DNA from: Horticoccus luteus
GTDB taxonomy: Bacteria > Verrucomicrobiota > Verrucomicrobiia > Opitutales > Opitutaceae
Reading direction: 5' to 3'
NCBI RefSeq assembly: GCF_019464535.1
Contig: NZ_CP080507.1
Location: 4,288,199-4,320,198 of the forward strand
DNA: 32,000 bases
Below are positions 1 to 32,000 of the stretch, in pieces (the first letter of the stretch is position 1; each line of letters starts with the position of its first letter). The notes under the pieces are model-generated. The model was not told where the DNA came from and did no database searches. It saw nothing but the letters and a program-made list of their open reading frames with translations. The translations under genes and the position numbers were made by a program.

Positions 1-3000
1 ACCGGCCTCGCCACCTTGACCGCCAAGAGCGGCATCGGCGACGTCGGCGCCGCCGACCTCAACACCGCGCTCGGCTCGCTCACCGCGTCCAACAGCACCA
101 CGGGCCGCATCGTCATCAACGAAGTCGACGCGCTGACCATCGCCGCGCCTGGTATTTCCAACACCGCCGGCACCGCCATCATCGTCACCACCGCCGCCGG
201 CACGCTCACCGTCAACGGTGCGGTCAACGTTTCCGCCGCCGGCCGTGTGCTCCTGCAGGCGGGTGGGGTGGGCTCTGATCTCTTTACCACCGCCGCCATC
301 TCCTCCGGCACCGGCGCCATCACGCTCCTCGCCGCCCGCGACCTCAACGTCGCCGCCAACATCGCCACGGTCGGCGGCTCCATCGATCTCGAAGCCACCG
401 CCGGCTCGCTCGCCATCGCCGACGGCGCCGCCCTCACGACGTCCGGTGGCAACCTTCGCGCCTTCGCCCACCTTTCCCTCGCCGTCACCGGCATCAACGT
501 CGGCGCCGGCGGCGCCACGCTCACTGCCGTCACCGGCCAAATCACCGACGCGGGCGATAGCTTGATCGACGTCGTCGCGTCCCTCCTTCGCCTCTCCGCC
601 GCCACCGGCATTGGCGCCGTCGATGCGATCGACGTTTCCGCCGGCACGCTCGCCGCGGCCACCACCTCCGGCGCCCTCCGCCTCAACGAAAGCGACGACG
701 TCACTATCGGCACCGTCGCCGTCATTTCCGTCAGCCGCGTGACCACCGCCGCCGGCGTGACCCCGCTCGCCGACAGCGCCGCCACCAGCGACCTCGTCGC
801 CGGCAACGGCGGCGACATCGCCCTCACAAGCCTCGCCGGCTCCATCACGTTGACCGACGGCGTCAACGCCGACGCCACCGCCGTCCATTCCGACACCGGC
901 AGCATCACCATCACCGCCGCCAACAACGTTCTTCAGAACGCCAACGTTTACACCGCCGCGGCCGGCACGATTTCTGTTACCGCCACGACCGGTTCCATCA
1001 CGATGGCCGATGGCACCAAGGCGCAGACCGTCACCGGCGAGATCACCTACCTCGCCGGCGTCAACGTCGCCCTCTCGCTGCTCACGAGCACGACCGGCGC
1101 GCTCAACGTCACCGCCACCGCCGGCGCGATCACCGATCACACCGCCGCCGAAACCGCCAACCTCTCCAGCGCCGCCCTCGCCACGCTCGTCGCCGGCACC
1201 GGCATCGGCGCCGCCAACGCCGCCGACATCGACACCACCATCGACTCCCTGCAGGCCACCGTCACCACCTCCGGCGGCATCTTCATCCAGGAAACGAGCG
1301 TCCTCGTCCTCACCGGCACCGGAGTCCAGACGCAGGCGGGCACCGGCGCGATTTCGATCCTCATCACCGACGGCAACCTCACTGTCGCCGCCCCCGTTCA
1401 AGCCTACGCGGGCAACGTTCGACTCGAAGCCGCCGGCACCACGCTCGCGAACTCCGACCTGCTCGTTAACGCCGCCGTCGGCTCCGGCGGCGGCAACCTC
1501 AGCCTCGTGGCCCGTCACGACGTCATCTTCGCCTCCGCCGGTAACGTCACCGTCTCCGCCGCTCCCGGCACCATCGACGTCTGGGCCCGCGAAGGTAAAC
1601 TTCAGCAAGCTGCCGATCTCATCCTCGCCACCGACGGCGCCAACATCCGCCTGACCGCTGCGACCTCGATCATCGCGGGAGTCATCGACGCGCGGACCAA
1701 CGCCGACCGTCTGGGCGGCACGCTGACGCAGCAAGCGGCCTGGGGCTCCCTCGCGCTGAGCGCCGGCAGCGGCTCGATCACCGACGCGAAGGCGCGCGGC
1801 GAAGCCGGCATCAACCTCTACGGCTCGTCCGCCCGCCTCTCCGCCGCGACCGACATCGGCGTCCTCGGTGCCGGCGTGGACAACGCCCTCGACACCGAAC
1901 TCGTCACCGTCGCGGCCGAGACCACGACCGCCGGCAGCATCAACCTCGCCGACGCGAGCGACCTGACGGTGGACACCGTGGCGATCATCTACGTCAACCG
2001 CGTCGCCGCCGACGGCACCGCCTCCGTGATCGGCACGACCGCCTTGTCCGACCTGACGACCACCGGCAACGGCGCAATCGTCGTCACCGCCGCGGGCGAC
2101 CTCACACTGAATGACGGCTTCGCCAACAACACCGCCGTCAGCGCGAACGGCACCGGCAACGTTTACGTCTCCGCCGCGAACGTCACCGCGAACGCGGACA
2201 TCCTCAGCGGCAGCGGCGACATCACCCTCCTCGGCACGACAAACCTGACCTTCAACACGACCGCCGACGTCAAGACGAGCGGCGGCGACGTGAACTTGGT
2301 CGCGGCCGCCGGCGCGATCCTCTTCGCCGACAACGCGCAAGTCGCCACCTCCAACGGCAACGTCCGCCTGCTCGCCGCGACCGACATCACGCTCGGCGGC
2401 ATCCAAGCCGGCACCGGCTCCGTCACCCTGACCGCGATCGCCGGCTCGATCCTCGACGGCGGCGACACGTATCAAGACATCAGCGCCTCCGCCGCGCGCC
2501 TCGTTGCTGGCACCGGCATCGGCACGTCCACCAACCCGCTCGAAGTCGGCCTCGACACCCTCGCCGCCAGCGCCGGCAGCGCGGGCATCAGCCTCGTCGA
2601 AGACAACGCTCTCACCGTCACAAACGTCTCAATCACCGTTCGCAGCGTCGCGACCGACGCCTCATCCGCCGCACTCGCCGCCGAAACCCTCTCCGACCTC
2701 ACGACGACCGCGAACGGCTCGATCGCCCTGACAATCATCGCCGGCGACCTCACGCTGAACGACGGCTTCGCCAACAACACGGCGGTCAGCGCGAACGGCA
2801 GCGGCAACGTTTACTTCTCCGCCGCGAACGTCACCGCGAACGCCGATATCCTCAGCGGCAGCGGCGACATCACGCTCCTCGGCGCGACGAACCTCGCCTT
2901 CAACGCGACCGCCGACGTCAAGACGACCGGCGGCGACGTGAACCTCGTGGCCGGGGTGGGGGCGATCCTCTTCGCCGACAACGCGCAAATCGCGACCTCG

Positions 3001-9000: not shown

Positions 9001-12000
9001 GGCACATCCACCAACCCCCTCGAGGTCGGCCTCGACACCCTGGCCGCCAGCGCCGGCAGCGCCGGCATCAGCCTCCTCGAAGACAACGCGCTCACGATCA
9101 CGAACGTGTCGGTCACCGTGCGCGCCGTCGCCGCCGACTTTACCTCCGCCGCGCTCACCGCCGAAACCCTCTCCGACCTCACGACGACCGCGAACGGCTC
9201 GATCGCGCTGCGCACCCTCAACGGCACGCTGACCCTGAACGACGGGGGCAACGCCAATCACACCGCGGTCAGCGCGGCCGGCACCGGCCGGATCCTCCTC
9301 TCGGCCGGCGGCGCGACGAGCGACCTCCTGCTCAACGCCGACGTCATCTCCGCGACGGGCGCGATCACGCTCCTCGCCGGCCATGACCTCACCACCGCCG
9401 CGACCGTGGCCGTGCAAACGGCCGGCGACCTCGACCTCGAAGCGACGACCGGCGCCCTGACCCTCGCGGCCACCTCGACCCTCACGACGACCGCGGGCTC
9501 CCTCCGCCTCCTCGCCGGCGCCGACGTGCGCCTCGCGCAAGTCCGGGCGACGACCGGCCGCATCCTGATCCGCTCCGGCGCCTCGATCCTGGACAACACC
9601 GCCGGCACCGCCGCCGCGAACCTCACCGCCACCGCGGTCCGCCTGGAAGCCGGCACCGGCGCCGGCACCGCCGCGACCCCGCTCACCCTGGCGACGGCGC
9701 TCCTCGCCGGCACCGCCGGCAGCGGCGGCCTGAACATCCTCAACGCGACCGCGCTGACGATCGACACGGTGACCTTCGCCCTCGCCAAGGTGAACGCCAA
9801 CTTCACGACGACGACCGTCACCGAACCCTCCCTCGCCGACCTCACCACGACCGCGAACGGGGCCATCACGCTGCGCACAGCCAACGGCACCCTCACGCTC
9901 AACGACGGCGCCGACGCCGACGGCCTGGCCCTCTCCGCCGCGGGCACCGGTGCCATCACGCTCCTGCCCGGTGGCGCCGCCTCGAATCTCCAAGTCAACG
10001 CCGGCGTCCGCTCCGGCACCGGCCCGATCCTCCTGGACGCGCCCGCCGCGATCACGCTCTCCTCCGCCGCGACGATCGCGACGACCGGCGGCACCCTCAC
10101 GCTGCACACCGCCACCGGCGCCATCACGATGGACTCCGGTTCGCGCCTCGCCTCCGCCGGCGGCCTGCTCACCGTCACCGCCGCGCAACGCCTTGCGGTC
10201 TCGATCATCGACGCCGGCACCGGCGCCATGGTGCTCACGACCGGCGCGGACCTGACCGACAACCTGGCCACCGAAGCCCCGAACCTCCTCGGCGCCGCCG
10301 CCACGCTCCGCAGCGTGGGTTCCCTCGGCACCGCCGCCAACAACCTCAACACGACCCTCGGCACCCTCGACGCCGCGATCTCCGGCCCCGGCACCCTGGT
10401 CCTCGCCGACACCGGCAACCTGACCGTCACCGCGACCACGACCGACGGCGCGATCACGCTGACGACCGCCGGCACCCTGACCGCCACCGCCCTCACGGCG
10501 GGCGGCACCGCGGACATCACCCTCACCGCCGGCGCCGACCTCCTCGTGGGCACCGTCCTCGCCGAGAACGACACGATCACCGCCACCGCCGCCGGCCGCC
10601 TCGAACGCGCCTCGACCGGCACCCAGTTCACCGCGGCCCTCTTGACGCTCCAAGCCGGCACCGGCATCGGCACCCTCGACCCCGTCGTCGTCGCCGTCCC
10701 CACGCTCTCCGCCACCTCGACGACCGGTGACATCCGCCTGCGCAACCTCCTCACGACCGACGTCACCGTCACCCACCTCGCCACCGGCACCGGCGCCATC
10801 GCCTACAGCCAGGCCGGCGGCACGCTCCTCGTCACCGACGCCACCACCCAAGACGGCGACATCGCGCTCAGCCTCGACCAAGGCAACCTCCATGTGGTCA
10901 ACGTCGACGCCGGCGGCACCGGCGACATCAGCCTGACCGTCATCGGCACCGGCAAAGTCAAATACGACACCGCCCACGCCGGCGGCGGCGACCTGAACAT
11001 CTCCACCTCCGGCGCGGTCACCCTCGACGAAGACCTCGTCACCCACGGCGAAAACCTCCACTTCACCGGCAACGTGGTCCTGCCCCGCGACACCCTGATC
11101 ACGACCTTCGGCGGCGACGTGACCTTCGACCAGACCATCGACGGCGCCTACGCCCTGACGATCGACGCCGGCTCCGGCGACGTCTCCTTCGCCCAGGCCC
11201 TCGGCGCGCAAACCCCCCTCACGCAACTGACGATCACCACGACCGGCGCGCTCACCTTCGCCGCCACCGTGACCGTGCAAGGCGACCTCGTCCTCGGCTC
11301 CGGCTCGCTCACCCTCACCGGCGGCCCGGGCTCGATCCACACCTTGAACCACGGCCAGTTCATCGCCGCCCCCGCGACCAACGTCGCCACGATCGGCCTG
11401 GGCAACGTGCCCACCCCCTCCGCCTACGCCTACCTCCTCTCCCAGACGAGCCTCGAAGCCCTGGCGCCCGGCTTCAGCCAGGTCGTCCTCGGCCGCGCCG
11501 ATTCCTCCGCCCGCATCGACCTCGGCACCGTGACCCTGGTCAACCCGACCCTCATCCGCTCCCCGCAGGCCACCGGCACGATCGTCCTCCTCGCGAACCA
11601 GACCCTCACCGTCACCGGCGCCAACCCCCTGACCCTGCAAGCGGGCCCCGGCACCGGCGCCTTCACGCAGGAAACCGGCGCGAAGCTCCTCGCCGGCACG
11701 GGCCTCGTCACGATCACCGCCGACCTCCTGAACCTGCAAGGCGCGGCCGGCTCGATCACCGGCACCGGCCGCCTGATCTTGCAACCGGCCTCCCTCACGC
11801 AACCGATCACCGTCGGCCAGGCCGGCGGCTTCGACCTCCTCGCTCCGGAAATCGCCGTGCCCGCGGCCTTCACCGAAGTGCAGATCGGCCGCACCGACGG
11901 CGCCCATGCGATCGACGTCTATCAAAGCACCTTCGGCACCGCGGTCCTGTTCTCCGCGCCCGCCGCGGCCGGCACCCTGACCGTGCACGGCGCGGTCCGC

Positions 12001-19300: not shown

Positions 19301-22300
19301 CGGCGATATCGGCCTCACGAACATATTTTTTGGAAACACGACTGCTCTCTACACCGATACCACGGCGCTGTCCGAGCTGACCACGGCCGGCAATGGCTCC
19401 ATTGTCCTGCGCACCGTCAATGGCACCATCACCCTCACGGACGCGGATGGAGATGGTATGGCGGTTGCGGCGGACGGCTCCGGCAATGTCCGTCTTGAGG
19501 CCGGTGGCGCTTCGAGCGATGTTGTCGTCAATGCCCGCGTCACCTCGGCCAGCGGCAACCTTTCCCTCCAGGCCGGCCACAGTGTCATCCAGTCGAATGC
19601 CGGCACCGGAATCGCCGATCTCGTGGTCGCGACGGCGCCGGGGTCAATCGATGTCGAAGCCGTTACCGGCTCCATCACGATGGACAGCGACCGGCAGGCG
19701 GTCACCGCCGGTGGTAGCATTCGCTACGCCGCTGGCACAGATGTCATTCTTGGTGTTCTCGACGCCCGCACGGTGGCTGACCGCGTTGGCGGCACGCTCG
19801 CCGATCAGACCAGCGCAACAACGCCATGGGGCGATGTCTCCGTGTTGGCCGGCACCTTCGGTGCATCGCCGACCGGCTCCATTCTTGACGCGAAAGCGCC
19901 GGCCAGTGGCACCGAAAATGTCTTCGCGCGCTGGTTGCGACTCCATGCGGCCACGCGCATCGGCAATCTAGCGGTTGATGGAAACCTTAATGCTCTGGAA
20001 ACAGAAGTGGCCGTAGTCACGGCTTACGCTGCTGCCGGCGGCATCAGCCTGCGCGACGATACCGATGTGACGGTCGACACCGTGACCGTTACCGTCAGCC
20101 GCGTTCTCGCCGATGGATCCACCACCGCCCAGACCGATTTGCAGCAAGCGGATCTCGTTACAGCCGGAGCCGACGGCTCGATTTCGCTGACGGCCTCGAA
20201 CGGGTCGATCACGGTCAACGACGGGGCTGACGCCGCCACCGGCGGCCTTGCTCTGGTTGGGATCAGCGCGAATGGCGCGGGCAACATCTTCCTACAGGCG
20301 AGCGGCGCCGCCCACGATATCACCCTCGGCGTTGGCGCTGCCATCCAGTCGGGCACGGGTAACATCACTCTCATCGCCGCCCGCGACATTACGCAGCAGG
20401 CGGGGGGAAACATCGTGGTGATCGCTTCGACCGGAACCATCGATATCGGAGCGACTGCCGGTTCCATTACGATGGACCCCGCCGCCAGCGATCAGACCGA
20501 CGGCGCCAACATCCGCTTGGATGCCGGAACCTCGATCATCGCGGGAGTCATCGACGCGCGGACCAACGCCGACCGTCTGGGCGGCACGCTGACGCAGCAA
20601 GCGGCCTGGGGCTCCCTCGCGCTGAGCGCCGGCAGCGGCTCGATCACCGACGCGAAGGCGCGCGGCGAAGCCGGCATCAACCTCTACGGCTCGTCCGCCC
20701 GCCTCTCCGCCGCGACCGACATCGGCGTCCTCGGTGCCGGCGTGGACAACGCCCTCGACACCGAACTCGTCACCGTCGCGGCCGAGACCACGACCGCCGG
20801 CAGCATCAACCTCGCCGACGCGAGCGACCTGACGGTGGACACCGTGGCGATCATCTACGTCAACCGCGTCGCCGCCGACGGCACCGCCTCCGTGATCGGC
20901 ACGACCGCCTTGTCCGACCTGACGACCACCGGCAACGGCGCAATCGTCGTCACCGCCGCGGGCGACCTCACACTGAATGACGGCTTCGCCAACAACACCG
21001 CCGTCAGCGCGAACGGCACCGGCAACGTTTACGTCTCCGCCGCGAACGTCACCGCGAACGCGGACATCCTCAGCGGCAGCGGCGACATCACCCTCCTCGG
21101 CACGACAAACCTGACCTTCAACACGACCGCCGACGTCAAGACGAGCGGCGGCGACGTGAACTTGGTCGCGGCCGCCGGCGCGATCCTCTTCGCCGACAAC
21201 GCGCAAGTCGCCACCTCCAACGGCAACGTCCGCCTGCTCGCCGCGACCGACATCACGCTCGGCGGCATCCAAGCCGGCACCGGCTCCGTCACCCTGACCG
21301 CGATCGCCGGCTCGATCCTCGACGGCGGCGACACGTATCAAGACATCAGCGCCTCCGCCGCGCGCCTCGTTGCTGGCACCGGCATCGGCACGTCCACCAA
21401 CCCGCTCGAAGTCGGCCTCGACACCCTCGCCGCCAGCGCCGGCAGCGCGGGCATCAGCCTCGTCGAAGACAACGCTCTCACCGTCACAAACGTCTCAATC
21501 ACCGTTCGCAGCGTCGCGACCGACGCCTCATCCGCCGCACTCGCCGCCGAAACCCTCTCCGACCTCACGACGACCGCGAACGGCTCGATCGCCCTGACAA
21601 TCATCGCCGGCGACCTCACGCTGAACGACGGCTTCGCCAACAACACGGCGGTCAGCGCGAACGGCAGCGGCAACGTTTACTTCTCCGCCGCGAACGTCAC
21701 CGCGAACGCCGATATCCTCAGCGGCAGCGGCGACATCACGCTCCTCGGCGCGACGAACCTCGCCTTCAACGCGACCGCCGACGTCAAGACGACCGGCGGC
21801 GACGTGAACCTCGTGGCCGGGGTGGGGGCGATCCTCTTCGCCGACAACGCGCAAATCGCGACCTCGGGAGGCAACGTCCGCCTCCTCGCCGCGACCGACA
21901 TCACCTTGGGCGGCCTCCAAGCCGGCACGGGTTCAGTCACGTTGACCGCGACCGCGGGCTCGATCCTCGACGGCGGCGACACGTATCAAGACATCAGCGC
22001 GTCCGCCGCGCGTCTGGTTGCCGGCACCGGCATCGGCACGTCCACGAACCCCCTCGAAGTCAGCCTCGACACCCTGGCCGCCAGCGCCGGCAGCGCGGGC
22101 ATCAGCCTCCTCGAAGACAACGCGCTCACGATCACGAACGTGTCGGTCACGGTGCGCGCCGTCGCCGCCGACTTCACGTCCACCGCGCTCGCCGCCGAAA
22201 CCCTCTCCGACCTCACGACGACCGCGAACGGCTCCATCGCCCTGACAATCATCGCGGGCGACCTCACGCTGAACGACGGCTTCGTGAACAACACCGCGGT

Positions 22301-25300
22301 CAGCGCGAACGGCACCGGCAACATCTACTTCTCCGCCGCGAACCTCACCGCCAACGCCGACATCCTCTCTGGCAGCGGCGACATCACGCTCCTCGGTGCC
22401 ACGAACCTCACGTTCACCACGACCGCCGACGTCAAAACCACCGGCGGCGACGTGAACCTCGTGGCCGCCGCGGGTGCGATCCACTTCGCCGACAACGCGC
22501 AAGTCGCCACCTCGAACGGCAACGTCCGCCTGCTCGCCGCGACCGACATCACGCTCGGCGGCATCCAAGCCGGCACCGGCTCCGTGACGTTGACCGCCAC
22601 CGCCGGCTCGATCCTCGACGGCGGGGACACCTATCAAGACATCAGCGCCAGCGCCGCTCGCCTGGTTGCCGGCACGGGCATCGGCACCGCGACCAACCCG
22701 CTCGAAGTCGGCCTCGACACGCTGGCCGCCAGCGCCGGTTCCGCCGGCATCAGCCTCCTCGAAGACAACGCGCTCACGATCACCAACGTCAGCGTCACCG
22801 TGCGCGCCGTCGCGGCCGACTTCACCTCCACCGCACTCACCGCTGAAACCCTCTCCGACCTCACGACGACCGCGAACGGCTCGATCGCCCTCACGATCAT
22901 CGCCGGCGACCTCACGCTGAACGACGGCTTCGTGAACAACACCGCGGTCAGCGCGAACGGCACCGGCAACGTCTACTTCTCCGCCGCGAACCTCACCGCG
23001 AACGCCGACATCCTCTCTGGCAGCGGCGACATCACACTCCTCGGCGCGACGAACCTCACCTTTAACACGACGGCCGACATCAAGACCACCGGCGGCGACG
23101 TGAACCTCGTGGCCACCGCGGGTGCGATCCACTTCGCCGACAACGCGCAAATCGCCACGTCAGGCGGCAACGTCCGCTTCCTCGCCGCGACCGACATCAC
23201 GCTCGGCGGCATCCAAGCCGGCACCGGCTCCGTGACGTTGACCGCCACCGCGGGCTCGATCCTCGACGGCGGCGACACGTATCAAGACATCAGCGCGTCC
23301 GCCGCGCGCCTGGTCGCCGGCACCGGCATTGGCACCGCGACGAACCCGCTCGAAGTCGGCCTCGACACCTTGGCCGCGTCCGCGGGCAGCGCCGGCATCA
23401 GCCTCCTCGAAGACAACGCCCTCACGATTACCAACGTCAGCATCACCGTGCGCGCCGTCGCGGCCGACTTCATCTCCACCGCACTCACCGCCGAAACCCT
23501 CTCCGACCTCGTCACGACGGCCAACGGCTCGATCGCCCTGACGATCATCGCCGGCGACCTGACGCTGAACGACGGCTTCGCCAACAACACCGCGGTCAGC
23601 GCGAACGGCTCCGGCAACGTTTACGTCTCCGCCGCGAACGTCACCGCGAACGCCGATATCCTCAGCGGCAGCGGCGACATCACACTCCTCGGCGCGACGA
23701 ACCTCACCTTCAACCCGACCGCCGACGTCAAGACGAGCGGCGGCGACGTGAACCTCGTGGCCACCGCGGGTGCGATCCACTTCGCCGACAACGCCCAAAT
23801 CGCGACCTCGGGCGGCAACGTCCGCCTGCTCGCCGCGAGCGACATCACCTTGGGCGGCCTCCAAGCCGGCACCGGCTCCGTCACCCTGACCGCGATCGCC
23901 GGCTCGATCCTCGACGGCGGTGACACGTATCAAGACATCAGTGCCAGCGCCGCGCGCCTGGTTGCCGGCACGGGCATCGGCACCGCGACCAACCCGCTCG
24001 AAGTCGGCCTCGACACGCTCGCCGCCAGCGCCGGTTCCGCCGGCATCAGCCTCCTCGAAGACAACGCGCTCACGATCACGAACGTGTCGGTCACCGTTCG
24101 CAGCGTCGCGACCGACGCCTCATCCGCCGCACTCGCCGCCGAAACCCTCTCCGACCTCACGACGACCGCGAACGGCTCGATCGCCCTGACAATCATCGCC
24201 GGCGACCTGACGCTGAACGACGGCTTCGCCAACAACACGGCGGTCAGCGCGAACGGCAGCGGCAACGTTTACTTCTCCGCCGCGAACGTCACCGCGAACG
24301 CCGATATCCTCAGCGGCAGCGGCGACATCACGCTCCTCGGCGCGACGAACCTCGCCTTCAACGCGACCGCCGACGTCAAGACGACCGGCGGCGACGTGAA
24401 CCTCGTGGCCGGGGTGGGGGCGATCCTCTTCGCCGACAACGCGCAAATCGCGACCTCGGGCGGCAACGTCCGCCTCCTCGCCGCGACCGACATCACCTTG
24501 GGCGGCCTCCAAGCCGGCACGGGTTCAGTCACGTTGACCGCGACCGCGGGCTCGATCCTCGACGGCGGCGACACCTATCAAGACATCAGCGCCAGCGCCG
24601 CGCGCCTGGTCGCCGGCACCGGCATCGGCACCGCGACGAACCCGCTCGAAGTCGGCCTCGACACCCTGGCCGCCAGCGCCGGCAGCGCCGGCATCAGCCT
24701 CCTCGAAGACAACGCGCTCACGATCACCAACGTGTCGGTCACCGTGCGCGCCGTCGCGGCCGACTTCACGTCCACCGCGCTCACCGCCGAAACCCTCTCC
24801 GACCTCGTCACGACGGCCAACGGCTCGATCGCCCTCACGATCATCGCCGGCGACCTGACGCTGAACGACGGCTTCGTGAACAACACCGCGGTCAGCGCGA
24901 ACGGCACCGGCAACGTTTACTTCTCCGCCGCGAACGTCACCGCGAACGCCGACATCCTCTCTGGCAGCGGCGACATCACGCTCCTCGGTGCCACGAACCT
25001 CACGTTCACCACGACCGCCGACGTCAAAACCACCGGCGGCGACGTGAACCTCGTGGCCGCCGCGGGTGCGATCCACTTCGCCGACAACGCGCAAGTCGCC
25101 ACCTCCAACGGCAACGTCCGCCTGCTCGCCGCGACCGACATCACGCTCGGCGGCCTCCAAGCCGGCACCGGCTCCGTCACCCTGACCGCCACCGCGGGCT
25201 CGATCCTCGACGGCGGCGACACCTATCAAGACATCAGCGCCAGCGCCGCGCGCCTGGTCGCCGGCACCGGCATCGGCACGTCCACGAACCCCCTCGAAGT

Positions 25301-28300
25301 CGGCCTCGACACGCTGGCCGCCAGCGCCGGTTCCGCCGGCATCAGCCTCCTCGAAGACAACGCGCTCACGATCACGAACGTATCGGTCACCGTGCGCGCC
25401 GTCGCCGCCGACTTTACCTCCACCGCGCTCGCCGCCGAAACCCTCTCCGACCTCACGACCACCGCGAACGGCTCGATCGCTCTCACGATCATCGCGGGCG
25501 ACCTCACGCTGAACGACGGCTTCGCCAACAACACCGCCGTCAGCGCGAACGGCAGCGGCAACGTTTACTTCTCCGCCGCGAACGTCACCGCCAACGCGGA
25601 CATCCTCAGCGGCAGCGGCGACATCACGCTGCTGGGCGCAACGAACCTCACCTTCAACGCGACCGCCGACATCAAGACGAGCGGCGGCGACGTGAACCTC
25701 GTGGCCACCGCGGGTGCGATCCACTTCGCCGACAACGCGCAAATCGCGACCTCGGGCGGCAACGTCCGCCTCCTCGCCGCGACCGACATCACCTTGGGCG
25801 GCCTCCAAGCCGGCACCGGCTCCGTGACGTTGACCGCTACCGCGGGCTCGATCCTCGACGGCGGCGACACGTATCAAGACATCAGCGCCAGCGCCGCGCG
25901 CCTGGTCGCCGGCACGGGCATCGGCACCGCGACGAACCCGCTCGAAGTCGGCCTCGACACCCTGGCCGCCTCCGCCGGCAGCGCGGGCATCAGCCTCCTC
26001 GAAGACAACGCCCTCACGATCGCGAACGTATCGGTCACCGTGCGCGCCGTCGCGGCCGACTTCACGTCCACCGCGCTCACCGCCGAAACCCTCTCCGACC
26101 TCACGACGACCGCGAACGGCTCCATCGCCCTCACGATCATCGGCGGCGACCTCACGCTGAACGACGGCTTCGCCAACAACACCGCCGTCAGCGCGAACGG
26201 CAGCGGCAACGTCTACTTCTCCGCCGCGAACCTCACCGCGAACGCCGACATCCTCAGCGGCAGCGGCGACATCACGCTCCTCGGCGCGACGAACCTCACC
26301 TTCAACGCGACCGCCGACGTCAAGACGAGCGGCGGCGACGTGAACCTCGTGGCCAGCGCCGGCGCGATCCACTTCGCCGACAACGCGCAAGTCGCGACCT
26401 CCAACGGCAACGTCCGCTTGCTCGCCGCGACCGACATCACGCTCGGCGGCATCCAAGCCGGCACGGGTTCCGTCACGTTGACTGCGACCGCGGGCTCGAT
26501 CCTCGACGGCGGCGACACCTATCAAGACATCAGCGCCAGCGCCGCGCGCCTGGTCGCCGGCACCGGCATCGGCACGTCCACGAACCCGCTCGAAGTCGGC
26601 CTCGACACCCTGGCCGCCAGCGCCGGCAGCGCGGGCATCAGCCTCCTCGAAGACAACGCGCTCAAGATCACCAACGTATCGGTCACGGTGCGCGCCGTCG
26701 CGGCCGACGTCACGTCCACCGCGCTCGCCGCCGAAACCCTCTCCGACCTCACGACCACCGCGAACGGCTCCATCGCCCTGACGATCATCGCCGGCGACCT
26801 GACGCTGAACGACGGCTTCGTGAACAACACCGCCGTCAGCGCGAACGGCAGCGGCAACGTTTACTTCTCCGCCGCGAACGTCACCGCGAACGCGGACATC
26901 CTCAGCGGCAGCGGCGACATCACGCTGCTGGGCGCAACGAACCTCACCTTCAACGCGACCGCCGACATCAAGACGACCGGCGGCGACGTGAACCTCGTGG
27001 CCACCGCGGGTGCGATCCACTTCGCCGACAACGCGCAAATCGCCACGTCGGGCGGCAACGTCCGCCTCCTCGCCGCGACCGACATCACGCTCGGCGGCAT
27101 CCAAGCCGGCACGGGTTCAGTCACGTTGACTGCGACCGCGGGCTCGATCCTCGACGGCGGCGACACCTATCAAGACATCAGCGCCAGCGCCGCGCGCCTG
27201 GTCGCCGGCACCGGCATCGGCACGTCGACGAACCCCCTCGAAGTCGGCCTCGACACCCTGGCTGCGTCCGCCGGTTCCGCAGGCATCAGCCTCCTCGAAG
27301 ACAACGCGCTCACGATCACGAACGTGTCGGTCACGGTGCGCGCCGTCGCCGCCGACTTTACCTCCGCCGCGCTCGCCGCCGAAACCCTCTCCGACCTCGT
27401 CACGACCGCCAACGGCTCCATCGCCCTGACGATCATCGCCGGCGACCTCACGCTGAACGACGGCTTCGTGAACAACACCGCGGTCAGCGCGAACGGCAGC
27501 GGCAACGTCTACTTCTCCGCCGCGAACCTCACCGCCAACGCCGACATCCTCAGCGGCAGCGGCGACATCACGCTGCTGGGCGCGACGAACCTCACCTTCA
27601 ACGCGACCGCCGACGTCAAGACGACCGGCGGCGACGTGAACCTGGTCGCCAGCGCCGGCGCGATCCACTTCGCCGACAACGCGCAAGTCGCCACGTCGGG
27701 CGGCAACGTCCGCCTCCTCGCCGCGACCGACATCACCTTGGGCGGCCTCCAAGCCGGCACGGGTTCCGTCACCTTGACCGCGACCGCCGGTTCGATCCTC
27801 GACGGCGGCGACACTTATCAAGACATCAGTGCCAGCGCCGCGCGCCTGGTCGCCGGCACCGGCATCGGCACATCCACCAACCCCCTCGAGGTCGGCCTCG
27901 ACACCCTGGCCGCCAGCGCCGGCAGCGCCGGCATCAGCCTCCTCGAAGACAACGCGCTCACGATCACGAACGTGTCGGTCACCGTGCGCGCCGTCGCCGC
28001 CGACTTTACCTCCGCCGCGCTCACCGCCGAAACCCTCTCCGACCTCACGACGACCGCGAACGGCTCGATCGCGCTGCGCACCCTCAACGGCACGCTGACC
28101 CTGAACGACGGGGGCAACGCCAATCACACCGCGGTCAGCGCGGCCGGCACCGGCCGGATCCTCCTCTCGGCCGGCGGCGCGACGAGCGACCTCCTGCTCA
28201 ACGCCGACGTCATCTCCGCGACGGGCGCGATCACGCTCCTCGCCGGCCATGACCTCACCACCGCCGCGACCGTGGCCGTGCAAACGGCCGGCGACCTCGA

Positions 28301-31300
28301 CCTCGAAGCGACGACCGGCGCCCTGACCCTCGCGGCCACCTCGACCCTCACGACGACCGCGGGCTCCCTCCGCCTCCTCGCCGGCGCCGACGTGCGCCTC
28401 GCGCAAGTCCGGGCGACGACCGGCCGCATCCTGATCCGCTCCGGCGCCTCGATCCTGGACAACACCGCCGGCACCGCCGCCGCGAACCTCACCGCCACCG
28501 CGGTCCGCCTGGAAGCCGGCACCGGCGCCGGCACCGCCGCGACCCCGCTCACCCTGGCGACGGCGCTCCTCGCCGGCACCGCCGGCAGCGGCGGCCTGAA
28601 CATCCTCAACGCGACCGCGCTGACGATCGACACGGTGACCTTCGCCCTCGCCAAGGTGAACGCCAACTTCACGACGACGACCGTCACCGAACCCTCCCTC
28701 GCCGACCTCACCACGACCGCGAACGGGGCCATCACGCTGCGCACAGCCAACGGCACCCTCACGCTCAACGACGGCGCCGACGCCGACGGCCTGGCCCTCT
28801 CCGCCGCGGGCACCGGTGCCATCACGCTCCTGCCCGGTGGCGCCGCCTCGAATCTCCAAGTCAACGCCGGCGTCCGCTCCGGCACCGGCCCGATCCTCCT
28901 GGACGCGCCCGCCGCGATCACGCTCTCCTCCGCCGCGACGATCGCGACGACCGGCGGCACCCTCACGCTGCACACCGCCACCGGCGCCATCACGATGGAC
29001 TCCGGTTCGCGCCTCGCCTCCGCCGGCGGCCTGCTCACCGTCACCGCCGCGCAACGCCTTGCGGTCTCGATCATCGACGCCGGCACCGGCGCCATGGTGC
29101 TCACGACCGGCGCGGACCTGACCGACAACCTGGCCACCGAAGCCCCGAACCTCCTCGGCGCCGCCGCCACGCTCCGCAGCGTGGGTTCCCTCGGCACCGC
29201 CGCCAACAACCTCAACACGACCCTCGGCACCCTCGACGCCGCGATCTCCGGCCCCGGCACCCTGGTCCTCGCCGACACCGGCAACCTGACCGTCACCGCG
29301 ACCACGACCGACGGCGCGATCACGCTGACGACCGCCGGCACCCTGACCGCCACCGCCCTCACGGCGGGCGGCACCGCGGACATCACCCTCACCGCCGGCG
29401 CCGACCTCCTCGTGGGCACCGTCCTCGCCGAGAACGACACGATCACCGCCACCGCCGCCGGCCGCCTCGAACGCGCCTCGACCGGCACCCAGTTCACCGC
29501 GGCCCTCTTGACGCTCCAAGCCGGCACCGGCATCGGCACCCTCGACCCCGTCGTCGTCGCCGTCCCCACGCTCTCCGCCACCTCGACGACCGGTGACATC
29601 CGCCTGCGCAACCTCCTCACGACCGACGTCACCGTCACCCACCTCGCCACCGGCACCGGCGCCATCGCCTACAGCCAGGCCGGCGGCACGCTCCTCGTCA
29701 CCGACGCCACCACCCAAGACGGCGACATCGCGCTCAGCCTCGACCAAGGCAACCTCCATGTGGTCAACGTCGACGCCGGCGGCACCGGCGACATCAGCCT
29801 GACCGTCATCGGCACCGGCAAAGTCAAATACGACACCGCCCACGCCGGCGGCGGCGACCTGAACATCTCCACCTCCGGCGCGGTCACCCTCGACGAAGAC
29901 CTCGTCACCCACGGCGAAAACCTCCACTTCACCGGCAACGTGGTCCTGCCCCGCGACACCCTGATCACGACCTTCGGCGGCGACGTGACCTTCGACCAGA
30001 CCATCGACGGCGCCTACGCCCTGACGATCGACGCCGGCTCCGGCGACGTCTCCTTCGCCCAGGCCCTCGGCGCGCAAACCCCCCTCACGCAACTGACGAT
30101 CACCACGACCGGCGCGCTCACCTTCGCCGCCACCGTGACCGTGCAAGGCGACCTCGTCCTCGGCTCCGGCTCGCTCACCCTCACCGGCGGCCCGGGCTCG
30201 ATCCACACCTTGAACCACGGCCAGTTCATCGCCGCCCCCGCGACCAACGTCGCCACGATCGGCCTGGGCAACGTGCCCACCCCCTCCGCCTACGCCTACC
30301 TCCTCTCCCAGACGAGCCTCGAAGCCCTGGCGCCCGGCTTCAGCCAGGTCGTCCTCGGCCGCGCCGATTCCTCCGCCCGCATCGACCTCGGCACCGTGAC
30401 CCTGGTCAACCCGACCCTCATCCGCTCCCCGCAGGCCACCGGCACGATCGTCCTCCTCGCGAACCAGACCCTCACCGTCACCGGCGCCAACCCCCTGACC
30501 CTGCAAGCGGGCCCCGGCACCGGCGCCTTCACGCAGGAAACCGGCGCGAAGCTCCTCGCCGGCACGGGCCTCGTCACGATCACCGCCGACCTCCTGAACC
30601 TGCAAGGCGCGGCCGGCTCGATCACCGGCACCGGCCGCCTGATCTTGCAACCGGCCTCCCTCACGCAACCGATCACCGTCGGCCAGGCCGGCGGCTTCGA
30701 CCTCCTCGCTCCGGAAATCGCCGTGCCCGCGGCCTTCACCGAAGTGCAGATCGGCCGCACCGACGGCGCCCATGCGATCGACGTCTATCAAAGCACCTTC
30801 GGCACCGCGGTCCTGTTCTCCGCGCCCGCCGCGGCCGGCACCCTGACCGTGCACGGCGCGGTCCGCACGAGCGGCGCCCAAGGCAACCTCACGGCCCGCA
30901 CCGGCGGCGACCTCACCATCGACGCGAACCTCACGATCGGCATTAGCGGCACGCTGACCCTCACCGCCGACACCGACGGGGACAACCACGGGGCCGTCCG
31001 CATCGCCCAAAACGCCGTCAGCGTCCTGCAAGTCGCCCAAGGCGGCATCGTCCTCCAAGGCGAAGCGATCCAGATCGGCACCGCGACCAACCGCGCCGAA
31101 CTGCTCGCCCTCCAAGGCGCGATCACCCTCACCGTCGACCTGAACGCCAACGGCCAGGGCACGCTGACCCTCGCCAACGATAACACCCAGTTGAAAGCGG
31201 GCACGGACCTCTTGATTACGACCGGCGGCACCGCGCCCGTCACCGGCACGCTGACCCTCCGCGGCCAGTTGCAGGCCCTGGGCAGGATCACCGTCCGCAG

Positions 31301-32000
31301 CGCCGCCGACGTGGTCGCGCAAAACCTCCTCCTGACCGCCCTGGGCGCCATCAGCCTTACCTCCGCCGGCAACGTGACCCTGCAAAGCACGATCCTGCAA
31401 ACGCCCGCCGGCGCGCTCACCCTGAGCGCGGACTCCGACCACAACGGCACGGGCGACCTCACCCTGGGGGCCGCCGCGCCGGTGCTCGTCACCGCGCAAC
31501 TCGACCTCGTCCTCGGCGGCGAAAACGTCACCATCGGCGGCCTGGGCGCCAACTTCGGCCGCGTGAACTCCCTCGCCGGCGCCGTGAGCATCTTCGCCAA
31601 CTACAACCGCGACACCACGGGCCGCTTCATGCTGATCCAGGCCCTCTCCGAAGTGAACGCCGCCACCACCCTGCAGGTCGGCGACCTGCTCTTCGGCGCC
31701 GGCACGCCCGTGGAAATCATCCTCAATGAAGGCGCCCTGCGCTCCAAAGGCACGCTCTTGGTGCAGACGACCGGCAACCTCGCGATCGGCATCGGCACCA
31801 TCGCCGGCCAGGCCAACGTCGAGTTCTCGGCCTACGGCGACATCACCGTCACCCAGGGCTCCCTCCTGTCCTCCGGCAACCGCCTGGCCCTCATGGCCGA
31901 CTTCGAACGCGACAACCACGGCACCCTCACCATCGCCGCCAACGTCTCCCTCTCCGTCCCCAACGGCAACCTCCTCCTCTTCGGCTACGACGTCCTCCTC
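13317..32000 (+). CDS. Second giant beta-strand-repeat protein, paralogue of gene 1; 3' end outside window (6228 codons visible); not listed in supplied ORF track
   Basis: I translated frame 3 (positions divisible by 3) by hand from 13290 through the unique region to about 20550 and met no stop. Beyond that the frame is the +18,866 image of gene 1's open frame, and the last codon 31998-32000 (ctc) is complete. The last in-frame upstream stop is TAG 13287-13289. The first plausible start is TTG 13317, giving M-NQRKPHRAARTPAFLIEPLEERVLLSATPVAG...; CTG 13299 is a weaker alternative. Later starts such as GTG 13386 would cut the conserved-looking LExRxLLSA motif. If the identity with gene 1 continues, the stop would lie about 57 nt past the window (inference). 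The coding call is strong; the exact start is uncertain. Confidence 0.85.
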   Translation, partial: MNQRKPHRAARTPAFLIEPLEERVLLSATPVAGLPLGHAHLHPVVVETAPAALPALANAAAHATATGGLFDQVELSAIPAAAVQTPAVQIEQGATAEFGQPGTDGRGNASSEVNLSQADLDAAGAAGPLVLGGETLQDLLIIGQNGQQAVHLPVTTLRGTQIVFQSPTFAQSLTIIGDGSTVDLTTNLTSATDVVINDSVKVTGDRSITAQAGQVRIAAPGTIYGDGDLAPDSLTLSATTDVLIDGAIGAAAGLQNLTINSGGNVTLNGAVTLGGNLTVNTGQAVVFNGALTITGDLTLDNVQSVTFNGPVTVTGKVVINKATSVNFNGNVAVGGNVTVGSSSAYANIGAVVFTTSARLDFGGAASFYSSGAITFGNAIGRSLTLTPQSLTLGSNDAITFASAAEVKLGTAPLSIVAGTTVSFGNNVVAGALSVSPVSGNIDFQGTTQVNSLTLVTTGASALARLNFLEVGSGDAVITANQIDFIGTVTDTGAASNLTLKPYTTGRAIAIGSSILSTPGYTIPLFSNRLDLSGNDMLAIQAGFASVNIGDAAAGTGIVYLGFMGTQLSGVSAEYLNRTQIYGGTIVVTQPMDIGATVDYFRLVARTGDVVINALVGYAQNGSLSERSPWLRFEAAANVVINQPIYATDRISLSAGMNSAGFVGSGSGSVTVAATGSVMTSNAAGPNKRIELSAGPLGGDILLFGASAEATILSTAGSSSEIALYAKAGAVTQSSGRIVGDRLAMQSANNITVRTNVGSLTAMTINGAVLPAGADQAINGVLITGAGTFTQTEVNNLAVDQVTTNGGAVAITTESGGAGNIVVNNINTVSGAITLTADGAITDSTPASDASVNLQTTGLLTATAKNGIGAAGLADLDVTIGSLQATNSVSGGIYLANQGNAGTTITGTGVRTTGGNGPISVTVTTGNLTISAPVAADGSGSVQLITAGASGSITSSAATSSATGPILLQSVNNITLNSGGTVATGGAGTIDLEAQNGSIALSAAATASGSGNIRFNAVNAGNTANIILSAAVATSTGSITILATNSVTQNSGANLTSIGSGSTGTIDVEATTGSITMAANALTATTGGNIRYKANVDATLGVLDARTNADRAGSTLIDQAAIWGSVSVLAVTGQIVDAKTAVATEPNIYARGIRLNANTRIGIDGASANPLEIEGAVLSAYAAGTSTSGINLLESTDITVDTVAVSVNRVAADLSASVAPATTDAAQSDLITAANNGHILLLTLDGSITVNAGTAPAGGIGVSANGAGNVLLAAGQTGATARDVSLNAAVQSATGNLSVIAAGSVNQNLVSATVKGDLVTAGTGTIDVQATTGSIVMAVNGADTTLAQTVGQNIRYSAGDSVMLARLDARDATNRADALLTNQAAGWGDISVTAGTVVSTGGITDAKVAGDAAVNLYANNLRLTAAANVGTLGAGTSNALETEVANLAARGAAGGINLLDNSDVTVGTIGQVPAARVAATGITSTQQDAAGLSDLATTGGDGSIVLRTVDGSITLTDGIAPADVTAVSAAGTGNILIEAQGAGRDVIANAAVKSVAGNITLKARHTVALNANGHLETGSAAGIAGTINVESVDLDIDMAAGVHAQTDGGNVRLHAGRHVVLGVVDARIASDRTGATLTLQNDATTPWGDVSVTAGATDAAGYITDADALNDTAVNVFARGLRLMAATRIGESTGVGAGYNPVETEVAVLSALAANGNIMLIESTDVTIGAVAVSVNAVAVDGVAATLADASQADLTTTGGNGSIILLTNNGNLTLTDGDANNVAISANGSGNIYLDAGVAGGASVGGISLLANAAVQTASGSILLISHVTDISFAAAANLIVSASPGGVAGSIVVAAQRSVLMDPAATFQTNAANIAVYSYTGDIVTGLVDARTNADRLGGTLSDQATWGQIVLDTTAIGATTGSIRDAKSDAASTTVNLYASAARLRAGNAIGALGVGTDNALETEVITLAAQTIGGGGGGINLRDLTSVTVGLVGDIGLTNIFFGNTTALYTDTTALSELTTAGNGSIVLRTVNGTITLTDADGDGMAVAADGSGNVRLEAGGASSDVVVNARVTSASGNLSLQAGHSVIQSNAGTGIADLVVATAPGSIDVEAVTGSITMDSDRQAVTAGGSIRYAAGTDVILGVLDARTVADRVGGTLADQTSATTPWGDVSVLAGTFGASPTGSILDAKAPASGTENVFARWLRLHAATRIGNLAVDGNLNALETEVAVVTAYAAAGGISLRDDTDVTVDTVTVTVSRVLADGSTTAQTDLQQADLVTAGADGSISLTASNGSITVNDGADAATGGLALVGISANGAGNIFLQASGAAHDITLGVGAAIQSGTGNITLIAARDITQQAGGNIVVIASTGTIDIGATAGSITMDPAASDQTDGANIRLDAGTSIIAGVIDARTNADRLGGTLTQQAAWGSLALSAGSGSITDAKARGEAGINLYGSSARLSAATDIGVLGAGVDNALDTELVTVAAETTTAGSINLADASDLTVDTVAIIYVNRVAADGTASVIGTTALSDLTTTGNGAIVVTAAGDLTLNDGFANNTAVSANGTGNVYVSAANVTANADILSGSGDITLLGTTNLTFNTTADVKTSGGDVNLVAAAGAILFADNAQVATSNGNVRLLAATDITLGGIQAGTGSVTLTAIAGSILDGGDTYQDISASAARLVAGTGIGTSTNPLEVGLDTLAASAGSAGISLVEDNALTVTNVSITVRSVATDASSAALAAETLSDLTTTANGSIALTIIAGDLTLNDGFANNTAVSANGSGNVYFSAANVTANADILSGSGDITLLGATNLAFNATADVKTTGGDVNLVAGVGAILFADNAQIATSGGNVRLLAATDITLGGLQAGTGSVTLTATAGSILDGGDTYQDISASAARLVAGTGIGTSTNPLEVSLDTLAASAGSAGISLLEDNALTITNVSVTVRAVAADFTSTALAAETLSDLTTTANGSIALTIIAGDLTLNDGFVNNTAVSANGTGNIYFSAANLTANADILSGSGDITLLGATNLTFTTTADVKTTGGDVNLVAAAGAIHFADNAQVATSNGNVRLLAATDITLGGIQAGTGSVTLTATAGSILDGGDTYQDISASAARLVAGTGIGTATNPLEVGLDTLAASAGSAGISLLEDNALTITNVSVTVRAVAADFTSTALTAETLSDLTTTANGSIALTIIAGDLTLNDGFVNNTAVSANGTGNVYFSAANLTANADILSGSGDITLLGATNLTFNTTADIKTTGGDVNLVATAGAIHFADNAQIATSGGNVRFLAATDITLGGIQAGTGSVTLTATAGSILDGGDTYQDISASAARLVAGTGIGTATNPLEVGLDTLAASAGSAGISLLEDNALTITNVSITVRAVAADFISTALTAETLSDLVTTANGSIALTIIAGDLTLNDGFANNTAVSANGSGNVYVSAANVTANADILSGSGDITLLGATNLTFNPTADVKTSGGDVNLVATAGAIHFADNAQIATSGGNVRLLAASDITLGGLQAGTGSVTLTAIAGSILDGGDTYQDISASAARLVAGTGIGTATNPLEVGLDTLAASAGSAGISLLEDNALTITNVSVTVRSVATDASSAALAAETLSDLTTTANGSIALTIIAGDLTLNDGFANNTAVSANGSGNVYFSAANVTANADILSGSGDITLLGATNLAFNATADVKTTGGDVNLVAGVGAILFADNAQIATSGGNVRLLAATDITLGGLQAGTGSVTLTATAGSILDGGDTYQDISASAARLVAGTGIGTATNPLEVGLDTLAASAGSAGISLLEDNALTITNVSVTVRAVAADFTSTALTAETLSDLVTTANGSIALTIIAGDLTLNDGFVNNTAVSANGTGNVYFSAANVTANADILSGSGDITLLGATNLTFTTTADVKTTGGDVNLVAAAGAIHFADNAQVATSNGNVRLLAATDITLGGLQAGTGSVTLTATAGSILDGGDTYQDISASAARLVAGTGIGTSTNPLEVGLDTLAASAGSAGISLLEDNALTITNVSVTVRAVAADFTSTALAAETLSDLTTTANGSIALTIIAGDLTLNDGFANNTAVSANGSGNVYFSAANVTANADILSGSGDITLLGATNLTFNATADIKTSGGDVNLVATAGAIHFADNAQIATSGGNVRLLAATDITLGGLQAGTGSVTLTATAGSILDGGDTYQDISASAARLVAGTGIGTATNPLEVGLDTLAASAGSAGISLLEDNALTIANVSVTVRAVAADFTSTALTAETLSDLTTTANGSIALTIIGGDLTLNDGFANNTAVSANGSGNVYFSAANLTANADILSGSGDITLLGATNLTFNATADVKTSGGDVNLVASAGAIHFADNAQVATSNGNVRLLAATDITLGGIQAGTGSVTLTATAGSILDGGDTYQDISASAARLVAGTGIGTSTNPLEVGLDTLAASAGSAGISLLEDNALKITNVSVTVRAVAADVTSTALAAETLSDLTTTANGSIALTIIAGDLTLNDGFVNNTAVSANGSGNVYFSAANVTANADILSGSGDITLLGATNLTFNATADIKTTGGDVNLVATAGAIHFADNAQIATSGGNVRLLAATDITLGGIQAGTGSVTLTATAGSILDGGDTYQDISASAARLVAGTGIGTSTNPLEVGLDTLAASAGSAGISLLEDNALTITNVSVTVRAVAADFTSAALAAETLSDLVTTANGSIALTIIAGDLTLNDGFVNNTAVSANGSGNVYFSAANLTANADILSGSGDITLLGATNLTFNATADVKTTGGDVNLVASAGAIHFADNAQVATSGGNVRLLAATDITLGGLQAGTGSVTLTATAGSILDGGDTYQDISASAARLVAGTGIGTSTNPLEVGLDTLAASAGSAGISLLEDNALTITNVSVTVRAVAADFTSAALTAETLSDLTTTANGSIALRTLNGTLTLNDGGNANHTAVSAAGTGRILLSAGGATSDLLLNADVISATGAITLLAGHDLTTAATVAVQTAGDLDLEATTGALTLAATSTLTTTAGSLRLLAGADVRLAQVRATTGRILIRSGASILDNTAGTAAANLTATAVRLEAGTGAGTAATPLTLATALLAGTAGSGGLNILNATALTIDTVTFALAKVNANFTTTTVTEPSLADLTTTANGAITLRTANGTLTLNDGADADGLALSAAGTGAITLLPGGAASNLQVNAGVRSGTGPILLDAPAAITLSSAATIATTGGTLTLHTATGAITMDSGSRLASAGGLLTVTAAQRLAVSIIDAGTGAMVLTTGADLTDNLATEAPNLLGAAATLRSVGSLGTAANNLNTTLGTLDAAISGPGTLVLADTGNLTVTATTTDGAITLTTAGTLTATALTAGGTADITLTAGADLLVGTVLAENDTITATAAGRLERASTGTQFTAALLTLQAGTGIGTLDPVVVAVPTLSATSTTGDIRLRNLLTTDVTVTHLATGTGAIAYSQAGGTLLVTDATTQDGDIALSLDQGNLHVVNVDAGGTGDISLTVIGTGKVKYDTAHAGGGDLNISTSGAVTLDEDLVTHGENLHFTGNVVLPRDTLITTFGGDVTFDQTIDGAYALTIDAGSGDVSFAQALGAQTPLTQLTITTTGALTFAATVTVQGDLVLGSGSLTLTGGPGSIHTLNHGQFIAAPATNVATIGLGNVPTPSAYAYLLSQTSLEALAPGFSQVVLGRADSSARIDLGTVTLVNPTLIRSPQATGTIVLLANQTLTVTGANPLTLQAGPGTGAFTQETGAKLLAGTGLVTITADLLNLQGAAGSITGTGRLILQPASLTQPITVGQAGGFDLLAPEIAVPAAFTEVQIGRTDGAHAIDVYQSTFGTAVLFSAPAAAGTLTVHGAVRTSGAQGNLTARTGGDLTIDANLTIGISGTLTLTADTDGDNHGAVRIAQNAVSVLQVAQGGIVLQGEAIQIGTATNRAELLALQGAITLTVDLNANGQGTLTLANDNTQLKAGTDLLITTGGTAPVTGTLTLRGQLQALGRITVRSAADVVAQNLLLTALGAISLTSAGNVTLQSTILQTPAGALTLSADSDHNGTGDLTLGAAAPVLVTAQLDLVLGGENVTIGGLGANFGRVNSLAGAVSIFANYNRDTTGRFMLIQALSEVNAATTLQVGDLLFGAGTPVEIILNEGALRSKGTLLVQTTGNLAIGIGTIAGQANVEFSAYGDITVTQGSLLSSGNRLALMADFERDNHGTLTIAANVSLSVPNGNLLLFGYDVLL
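13362..13400 (+). other. N-terminal 'LIEPLEERVLLSA' motif of gene 2 (LExRxLLSA-type motif)
   Basis: Codons ctc atc gag ccg ttg gag gaa cgc gtg ctt ctg tca gcc, preceded by a short basic stretch (NQRKPHRAARTP). From memory, and not checked by any search, LE-x-R-hydrophobic-hydrophobic-(S/D)-A motifs about 15-35 residues from the start are common in very large extracellular repeat proteins of high-GC Gram-negative lineages, notably planctomycetes and verrucomicrobia and some proteobacteria. Confidence 0.6.
16623..20552 (+). repeat. Five degenerate modules of about 257-266 aa (771-798 nt) in the unique head of gene 2, each marked by a (V/L)DAR(T)NADR...WG motif
   Basis: The in-frame 'DAR' codons start at 16623, 17415, 18186, 18984 and 19761; a sixth at 20553 lies inside the shared tract and equals 1687 in gene 1. 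Spacings are 792, 771, 798, 777 and 792 nt. Each module repeats this pattern: GN(I/V)R(Y/L).AG..V.LG.(L/V)DAR...DR.G.TL..Q...WG.(V/I)SV.AG...G.I.DAK....N(L/V)(Y/F)A..LRL.A...IG.....NALETEV..L.A....GI.L.....DVTV..V. Similarity is at protein level only; the nucleotide sequences are diverged. Confidence 0.8.
20529..32000 (+). repeat. Copy B of the 11,472-bp direct repeat (3' part of gene 2)
   Basis: Same evidence as copy A. The left boundary is sharp. A 21-nt identical island (1630-1650 = 20496-20516, accgacggcgccaacatccgc) is followed by 12 nt with 7 mismatches (ctgaccgctgcg vs ttggatgccgga), then uninterrupted identity. Upstream of the island the flanks are alignable only as diverged paralogues. 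Confidence 0.95.
20910..28071 (+). repeat. Same 648-bp tandem array inside gene 2 (image of 2044-9205 at +18,866)
   Basis: Unit starts at 21330, 21978, 22626, 23274, 23922, 24570, 25218, 25866, 26514, 27162 and 27810. The unit-specific variants occur in the same order as in gene 1, judged from identical antisense ORF translations. Confidence 0.95.

Follow-up and report, generated by a model that had tools for sequence, protein, structure and literature searches.

Two adjacent giant genes of Horticoccus luteus end in the same 11.5 kb of DNA, probably through a very recent recombinational copy

Two giant genes lie side by side in the genome of Horticoccus luteus strain KSB-15 (Verrucomicrobiota, Opitutaceae; cited as CP080507), and they raise the question of how two proteins that begin with very different N-terminal parts came to end in exactly the same DNA. 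The stretch analysed, hereafter the window, comprises 32,000 nt (positions 4,288,199 to 4,320,198 of the forward strand of contig NZ_CP080507.1) with 68.6% G+C, and contains only these two genes, both on the plus strand. Gene 1 enters the window from the left and is seen in its 3′ part, whereas gene 2 is seen from its start codon almost to its end. A preliminary description, made from the sequence without database searches, had presented them as two different N-terminal heads on one identical stalk and C-terminus, and this architecture was borne out in the analysis reported here (Table 1).

The two tracts that had been described as identical lie 18,866 nt apart, and an exact comparison gave 0 mismatches over 11,472 nt, whereas positions 1-1500 compared at the same offset showed 34-38% identity, which corresponds to the background level. 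As the window edge cuts the second copy just before its expected end, the public protein of gene 2 was used to follow it further. The translation of gene 2 in the window equals that protein from residue 2 on (the TTG start at 13317 is implied by it), its last 18 residues, encoded outside the window, match the C-terminus of gene 1, and its length of 6246 aa is the one predicted if copy 2 uses the same stop as copy 1. Therefore, at the protein level, the shared tract reaches the stop codon.

Table 1. Features of the window, with coordinates in nucleotides from its first position.
Feature	Coordinates	Strand	Description
Gene 1, 3′ part	1..13191	+	Stop-free frame 0 over 1-13188; at least 4396 codons plus TAA (13189-13191); N-terminus off the left edge
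Head 1	1..1662	+	Unique to gene 1; about two diverged A-type repeat units
Transition zone, gene 1	1630..1662	+	21-nt identity island (1630-1650), then 12-nt patch with 6 mismatches (1651-1662); base-by-base alignment
Identical tract, copy 1	1663..13134	+	0 mismatches versus 20529-32000; probably continues to the stop at 13191
B-type array, copy 1	2071..9198	+	11 tandem units of 648 bp (216 aa)
C-terminal 900-aa region	10489..13188	+	Most conserved part of the family; 39-46% identity to P0001-P0004, P0136 and P0137
Intergenic gap	13192..13316	.	125 nt, 47% GC
Gene 2	13317..32000	+	K0B96_00005, QYM80869.1 / WP_220166622.1, 'hypothetical protein', 6246 aa; TTG start; stop expected 57 nt past the window
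Head 2	13317..20528	+	2404 aa unique to gene 2: N-domain, then diverged A-type units of ~260 aa
LEPR-XLL motif, gene 2 N-terminus	13359..13418	+	Residues 15-34; NCBIfam NF012209, 18.3 bits versus a cut-off of 17, E = 0.0012
Transition zone, gene 2	20496..20528	+	21-nt island (20496-20516), then 12-nt patch (20517-20528); base-by-base alignment
Identical tract, copy 2	20529..32000	+	Exact comparison; window edge cuts the tract ~57 nt short of the expected stop
B-type array, copy 2	20937..28064	+	Same array repeated in gene 2

Upstream of the shared tract the two genes proved to be only distant paralogues, as had been proposed. Global alignment of head 1 with the end of head 2 gave 35% amino acid and 52% nucleotide identity (27-31% by BLASTP), and nucleotide identity dropped at the boundary from 100% to 52-57% in one step, with a flat profile and no gradient over the 554 codons before it. 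Third-position identity upstream of the boundary was ~0.5 and looks near saturation. Between head 2 and the DNA of gene 1 there was no other match above ~77% over 300 nt or less.

The earlier placement of the switch within 12 nt, just after a 21-nt island of identity, agreed with a base-by-base alignment of the two transition zones. The island codes for the conserved motif TDGANIR. As a second exact match of 21 nt between head 2 and gene 1 was present at 16931/1992, and the probability of identical codons given seven identical amino acids was ~0.035 under head-2 codon usage, the island may reflect conservation of the motif only and lie outside the transferred tract. The boundary itself is flanked by T.G.NIR and DARTNADR.GGTL, the two motifs that are best conserved in the A-type unit. 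At these motifs other units of head 2 have exact runs of 9-14 nt in common with gene 1, and one further unit of head 2 matched the DAR motif of the stalk in exact runs of 8, 14 and 12 nt. On these alignments, the two motifs are the only candidate patches of short DNA homology through which the diverged heads could recombine.

The age of the event was estimated against the repeat array that fills much of the stalk. The internal 648-bp array noted earlier was recovered as peaks of autocorrelation at 648, 1296, 1944 and 2592 nt, and 11 units were delimited in each gene. The units of one copy are 85-96% identical in pairs, with 251 nt as the longest exact match between any two, and have diverged to dS values of 0.10-0.39 (mean 0.25; dN/dS 0.21). 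In contrast, dS between the two 11.5-kb copies was below 0.001 (95% upper bound). Therefore, even the youngest pair of units is at least 100 times older than the event that links both genes, and, since the array units have drifted to a dS of 0.25, homogenisation is not generally fast in this DNA. The stalks are 100% identical between the genes and 35-46% identical to their nearest relatives, whereas head 1 has 35% identity to head 2 and 50-60% to gene A of the metagenomic locus L002, so the tract is far more alike within the genome than to its orthologues and the flanks show the opposite, which is the pattern by which gene conversion is recognised.

Read together with its relatives, gene 2 opens with a LEPR-XLL leader and an N-domain of ~770 aa, continues with A-type units of ~260 aa and the B-type array (units of 216 aa), and closes, after two or three degenerate units, with the conserved C-terminal region; by homology, gene 1 probably has the same architecture. 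When two array units were modelled with AlphaFold2, one continuous beta-solenoid was obtained (pLDDT 87.2, pTM 0.86), and the C-terminal 900 aa were modelled as an all-beta solenoid (pLDDT 84.5) with short strands up to the C-terminus. The top PDB matches of both models in Foldseek were the beta-helix exoproteins EtpA, IgA1 protease, Hap, HMW1, HxuA, FHA and Ag43, all with E > 0.01, and every best match of the C-terminal model had E > 0.05. On these models, both genes are predicted to encode giant beta-solenoid proteins. No PDB sequence match was obtained for either part searched, and no Pfam match at E ≤ 0.01 in residues 1-2428 of gene 2. A Pfam match to OsmC in residues 1273-1326 of gene 1 (E = 2e-8) was discarded as spurious, as it sums weak matches to repeats and no single stretch passes alone; no other Pfam family was matched.

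To place both genes in their family, the C-terminal 900 aa were searched with HMMER against 1.84 billion representative proteins, yielding 380 matches at E ≤ 0.001 and 35 at E ≤ 1e-30, most of the weaker ones only through generic repeats. By this count, the predicted family of giant, secreted beta-solenoids with a LEPR-XLL leader is rare. Its true relatives include a 'beta strand repeat-containing protein' of Rariglobus hedericola (P0136) and the metagenomic giants P0137 and gene A of locus L002, the latter on a 120-kb contig and with an array of its own (729 bp); one Rariglobus relative carries the NCBI name LEPR-XLL. No separate match to the gene 1 product appeared in the representative-protein search, and a search with the C-terminal 600 aa found no true relatives in the genome, metagenome and viral contig collections.

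The direction of the transfer was approached through codon composition and through these relatives. At third positions, head 1 (C3 0.78, A3+T3 0.08) is close to the stalk (C3 0.68-0.74, A3+T3 0.01-0.05, T3 0.01-0.03), whereas head 2 has C3 0.54, T3 0.12-0.15 and A3+T3 0.17-0.21. The compositional break of gene 2 falls at the identity boundary, and the break in gene 1 is much smaller. Moreover, the first 600 residues of the visible part of gene 1 align colinearly with L002 gene A (residues 1287-1889; 50-60% identity), and the alignment passes without a break through the boundary, which falls at residue 554. Because both codon composition and colinearity with this orthologue point in the same direction, there is moderate support for gene 1 as the putative donor, to which the tail would be native.

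Head 2 is only ~36% identical to L002 gene A, so that the split between both heads would predate the split of the two organisms. The N-domain of gene 2 is 41% identical to that of locus L003 and 50% to P0011. As L003 joins, in apparently one gene, a head-2-like N-domain (41%) to the family C-terminus (41%), gene 2 was probably once a complete member of the family with a tail of its own.

We therefore regard it as probable, though well short of certain, that the two genes are ancient tandem paralogues and that the last 11.5 kb of gene 2 are a very recent recombinational copy of the 3′ end of gene 1. The copied stretch would run from the end portion of the last A unit through the 11-unit array and on to the C-terminal region, and its left end would lie between the T.G.NIR and DARTNADR.GGTL motifs of the A unit. 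As to the type of crossover, the simplest route would be that sister chromosomes underwent a single unequal exchange at homeologous sequences, or a template switch, by which the interval of 18,866 bp would be duplicated. A single exchange at the motif would need one junction only and would give exactly the join of head 2 and stalk that is observed, whereas a two-ended conversion would require a second patch of homology at a distance of 11.5 kb, within a tail presumably no less diverged than the heads. The unequal exchange predicts that the gap and head 2 recur after the stop of gene 2, followed by the original tail of gene 2. Later conversion between the now identical copies could maintain their identity, and since identical copies of 11.5 kb convert easily, the zero divergence gives the time of the last homogenisation, and the junction may be older.

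Several observations weigh against this interpretation. The composition of head 1 also differs from that of the stalk (chi-square 54-70), and the GC3 of a tract that recombines could be raised by GC-biased conversion, for which two reasons the argument on direction is only a moderate one. The repeat units make orthology alignments ambiguous past residue ~600. The right end of the repeat lies beyond the end of the window at 32000, as would the predicted third gene, head 2 on its original tail. The assembler itself might be the source of the exact identity. Finally, as the fold matches are weak (all with E > 0.01), 'fibre' or 'adhesin' is only an analogy for the putative function, drawn from the predicted fold.

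The strongest competitor of a recent copy is long-running concerted evolution, in which the 3′ 11.5 kb would have been converted repeatedly since the ancient duplication, with the heads outside the conversion domain and the zero divergence dating only the last conversion. Identical direct repeats of 11.5 kb are excellent substrates for recombination, a sharp boundary reinforces itself once its flanks have diverged, and no homology-poor junction is needed on the right-hand side; there is also a documented precedent in the bab paralogues of Helicobacter pylori (PMC4552749). Nevertheless, neither a gradient nor a mosaic of intermediate identity lies beside the boundary, no older partial tracts were found elsewhere in head 2 against gene 1, the units within the array have been left to drift, and codon composition ties the stalk closer to head 1 than to head 2. 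The comparison with related loci that had been suggested beforehand points the same way: neither L002 nor L003 has homogenised neighbouring paralogues, although these are only two related loci and neither belongs to a close relative of H. luteus. Repeated events would leave mosaic tracts, an identity gradient at the boundary or a recurrence of the pattern in relatives, and none of these was seen in the window, L002 or L003. Thus, the lack of a gradient together with the lack of homogenised paralogues in L002 and L003 favours one discrete event, and we rate prolonged conversion as unlikely, albeit worth serious consideration. The preliminary description had left the choice between a recent duplication or conversion and ongoing concerted evolution; the recent date stood (dS < 0.001), and the concerted process is the less favoured of the two.

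The exact identity could also be partly a product of the assembly, in the sense that both stalks exist but differ in true sequence or unit number, and that a single consensus was written into both places by a repeat-graph assembler or during polishing with multi-mapped reads; in the extreme case, the tandem would be a mis-join. An exact repeat of 11.5 kb can be resolved only by reads longer than itself. In addition, gene 2 carries the first locus tag (00005) of the 4,320,198-bp record, which is not rotated to dnaA, so the locus adjoins the linearisation point of the record, where assembly problems concentrate; the origin of the record must then fall either within gene 1 or a short way upstream of it, or else immediately downstream of gene 2. 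Against these considerations, three distinct junctions are found in the window (head 1 to stalk, stalk to gap plus head 2, and head 2 to stalk), which, if real, imply at least two copies of the stalk on one linear molecule. The join between head 2 and stalk is in frame, in register and at a conserved motif, as an arbitrary overlap of contig ends would not be, both genes are free of frameshifts over 13 and 18.7 kb, the array units are 4-15% divergent and so can be placed by reads, and collapse by an assembler itself needs a very high true identity. An untrimmed circular overlap was excluded, as the copies are 7.4 kb of unique DNA apart, both the reading frame and the repeat register continue through the junction, and the annotation gives gene 2 as intact. 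Of the artefact that had been raised as an alternative, then, fewer than two copies are unlikely, whereas an exact identity written by the assembler keeps some weight, and we hold this explanation as a whole to be improbable.

It is very improbable, in our judgement, that the stalk is actively maintained, with conversion continuing under the two heads and RecA-dependent deletion or amplification of the 18.9-kb unit varying the dosage of heads or losing and regaining head 2. The least probable reading is a programmed variation in which RecA-mediated deletion or amplification of that unit would switch which head, or how many heads, a population displays: direct repeats of this length recombine at appreciable frequency and the two heads are very different, but the window holds no inverted repeats, recombinase genes or silent cassettes, deletion would be irreversible and would always remove head 2, and the arrangement is seen in no relative (L002, L003). 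The head-swapping surface-fibre system imagined in the preliminary description accordingly found no support, since the window has no meaningful inverted repeats and no recombinase gene, and direct repeats only delete or amplify. An invertible element or shufflon was rejected too, as the inverted repeats of the window, at only 72-78% complementarity, seem to be fortuitous.

Other features of the window add little to the question of how the copy arose but describe the locus. In the gap between both genes no sigma-70-like promoter was found, and a weak terminator-like hairpin (13278-13296), followed by a T-rich run, lies 20 nt 5′ of the TTG of gene 2; one such hairpin was found against 0.6 expected by chance. 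Gene 2 starts with TTG AAC CAG ~15 codons before the LEPR-XLL motif, and gene B of L002 has, at about position 12800 of that locus, an in-frame TTG AAG CAG ~14 codons before its own motif. On this comparison, a TTG start context may be common to this type of leader.

The GC3 of the gene 1 reading frame was 0.89-0.94, and third positions of the coding strand over 1-13188 and 20529-32000 are ~70-80% C and ~20% G, an extreme strand-specific C3 bias. Antisense open reading frames of up to 1694 aa overlap both genes (for example, 8251-13335 on the minus strand); they were taken as by-products of the high G+C content and the codon bias, and not as genes. Scans of the window for Rfam families and tRNAs gave no matches.

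The related loci were also inspected for parallels to the tandem. In L002 the neighbour of gene A, gene B, is an unrelated LEPR-XLL-like protein, and in L003 the apparent pair of giants looks like one gene split by a frameshift, so that neither was kept as a parallel. The two genes called in L003 (Ga0302279_10000864; 2-9034, and 9039-27992, which is P0137) look like a single gene of at least 9300 aa, as junk-like sequence closes the first and the second opens in the middle of a repeat. The first 1000 aa of L002 gene A (L002 2-3001), a region upstream of the visible part of gene 1, contain a domain of ~200 aa common to more than 1900 proteins, among them multicopper-oxidase-like and beta-1,3-glucanase-family proteins. 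A weak match in Rickettsiales, the sole result of a profile scan of genome contigs, was treated as unrelated, and L005 (P0147), a scaffold of 1.9 kb, was uninformative.

Outside mobile elements and rRNA operons, perfect direct repeats of 11.5 kb are unusual in bacterial chromosomes. The present one belongs to neither class and is inherently unstable, and from what is known of tandem duplications the 18.9-kb unit may fairly be predicted to be unstable as well. The locus offers a clean and datable case of module exchange among giant repetitive surface-protein genes, with its breakpoint at a conserved repeat motif, and it documents the rare and uncharacterised giants in which a beta-solenoid follows a LEPR-XLL leader. 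If the stalk were actively maintained after all, the giant LEPR-XLL fibres of Verrucomicrobiota would have a mechanism of copy-number-based variation. For the CP080507 record of H. luteus, the sequence and copy number of the locus are flagged for checking.

Among the closest known systems are the LEPR-XLL proteins (NF012209), as gene 2 has the motif above the cut-off, a length of 6246 aa and a host of the PVC group (Verrucomicrobiota); nevertheless, that family is defined by its leader only, and for gene 1 the N-terminus falls beyond the window edge. The TpsA or FHA-like exoproteins resemble both genes in their giant size and may resemble them in the shaft, which is rich in Gly, Ala, Thr, Ser and Val and predicted to be a beta-helix, with EtpA, HMW1 and FHA among the best fold matches beside other beta-helix proteins, and with weak sequence matches to proteins of the FHA family. 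A further likeness is a repeat of ~100 aa that residues ~3672-3775 of gene 1 have in common, in 43 matched stretches, with P0135, the giant of the first locus of L004. As this match, a strong one at the level of repeats, sits in a ShlB/TPS locus, the repeats of the shaft appear related to those of FHA-like proteins. L004 itself (4015-34262 of ctg6211l, a 2.5 Mb contig) contains in tandem two loci with a ShlB-type transporter and a giant TPS-domain protein.

Gene 2 differs from TpsA proteins in having a LEPR-XLL leader instead of an N-terminal TPS domain (PF05860), and no gene for a TpsB/ShlB transporter (POTRA plus ShlB) was found in the window or beside the relatives in the viewed parts of L002 and L003. 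Regarding the barrel of type Va autotransporters (PF03797), no Pfam match was obtained, and the model of the last 900 aa is solenoid-like to the C-terminus. CdiA and Rhs proteins are likewise giant beta-rich exoproteins whose conserved body recombines with alternative end modules, but in them the variable part is a C-terminal toxin tip, with silent orphan cassettes downstream, whereas in H. luteus the variation lies in the 2400 aa at the N-terminus, and both are complete genes.

Bordetella bronchiseptica is reported to have a second giant FHA-like gene, fhaS, of high nucleotide similarity to fhaB (PMC4542190); these two genes are not adjacent. A likeness in process is found in the babA, babB and babC genes of Helicobacter pylori, where gene conversion between paralogues yields chimeric adhesin genes (PMC4552749). 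There, as in H. luteus, paralogous surface-protein genes share homogenised segments and recombination between loci produces chimeras, but the bab genes are of ~2 kb, occupy separate loci and have been converted repeatedly across strains, whereas here 11.5 kb are shared by adjacent genes and only one event is visible, in one genome. The formation of chimeric paralogous surface-protein genes by intragenomic recombination is thus already well known, and the giant genes of H. luteus are a new and unusually large instance of it rather than a new mechanism.

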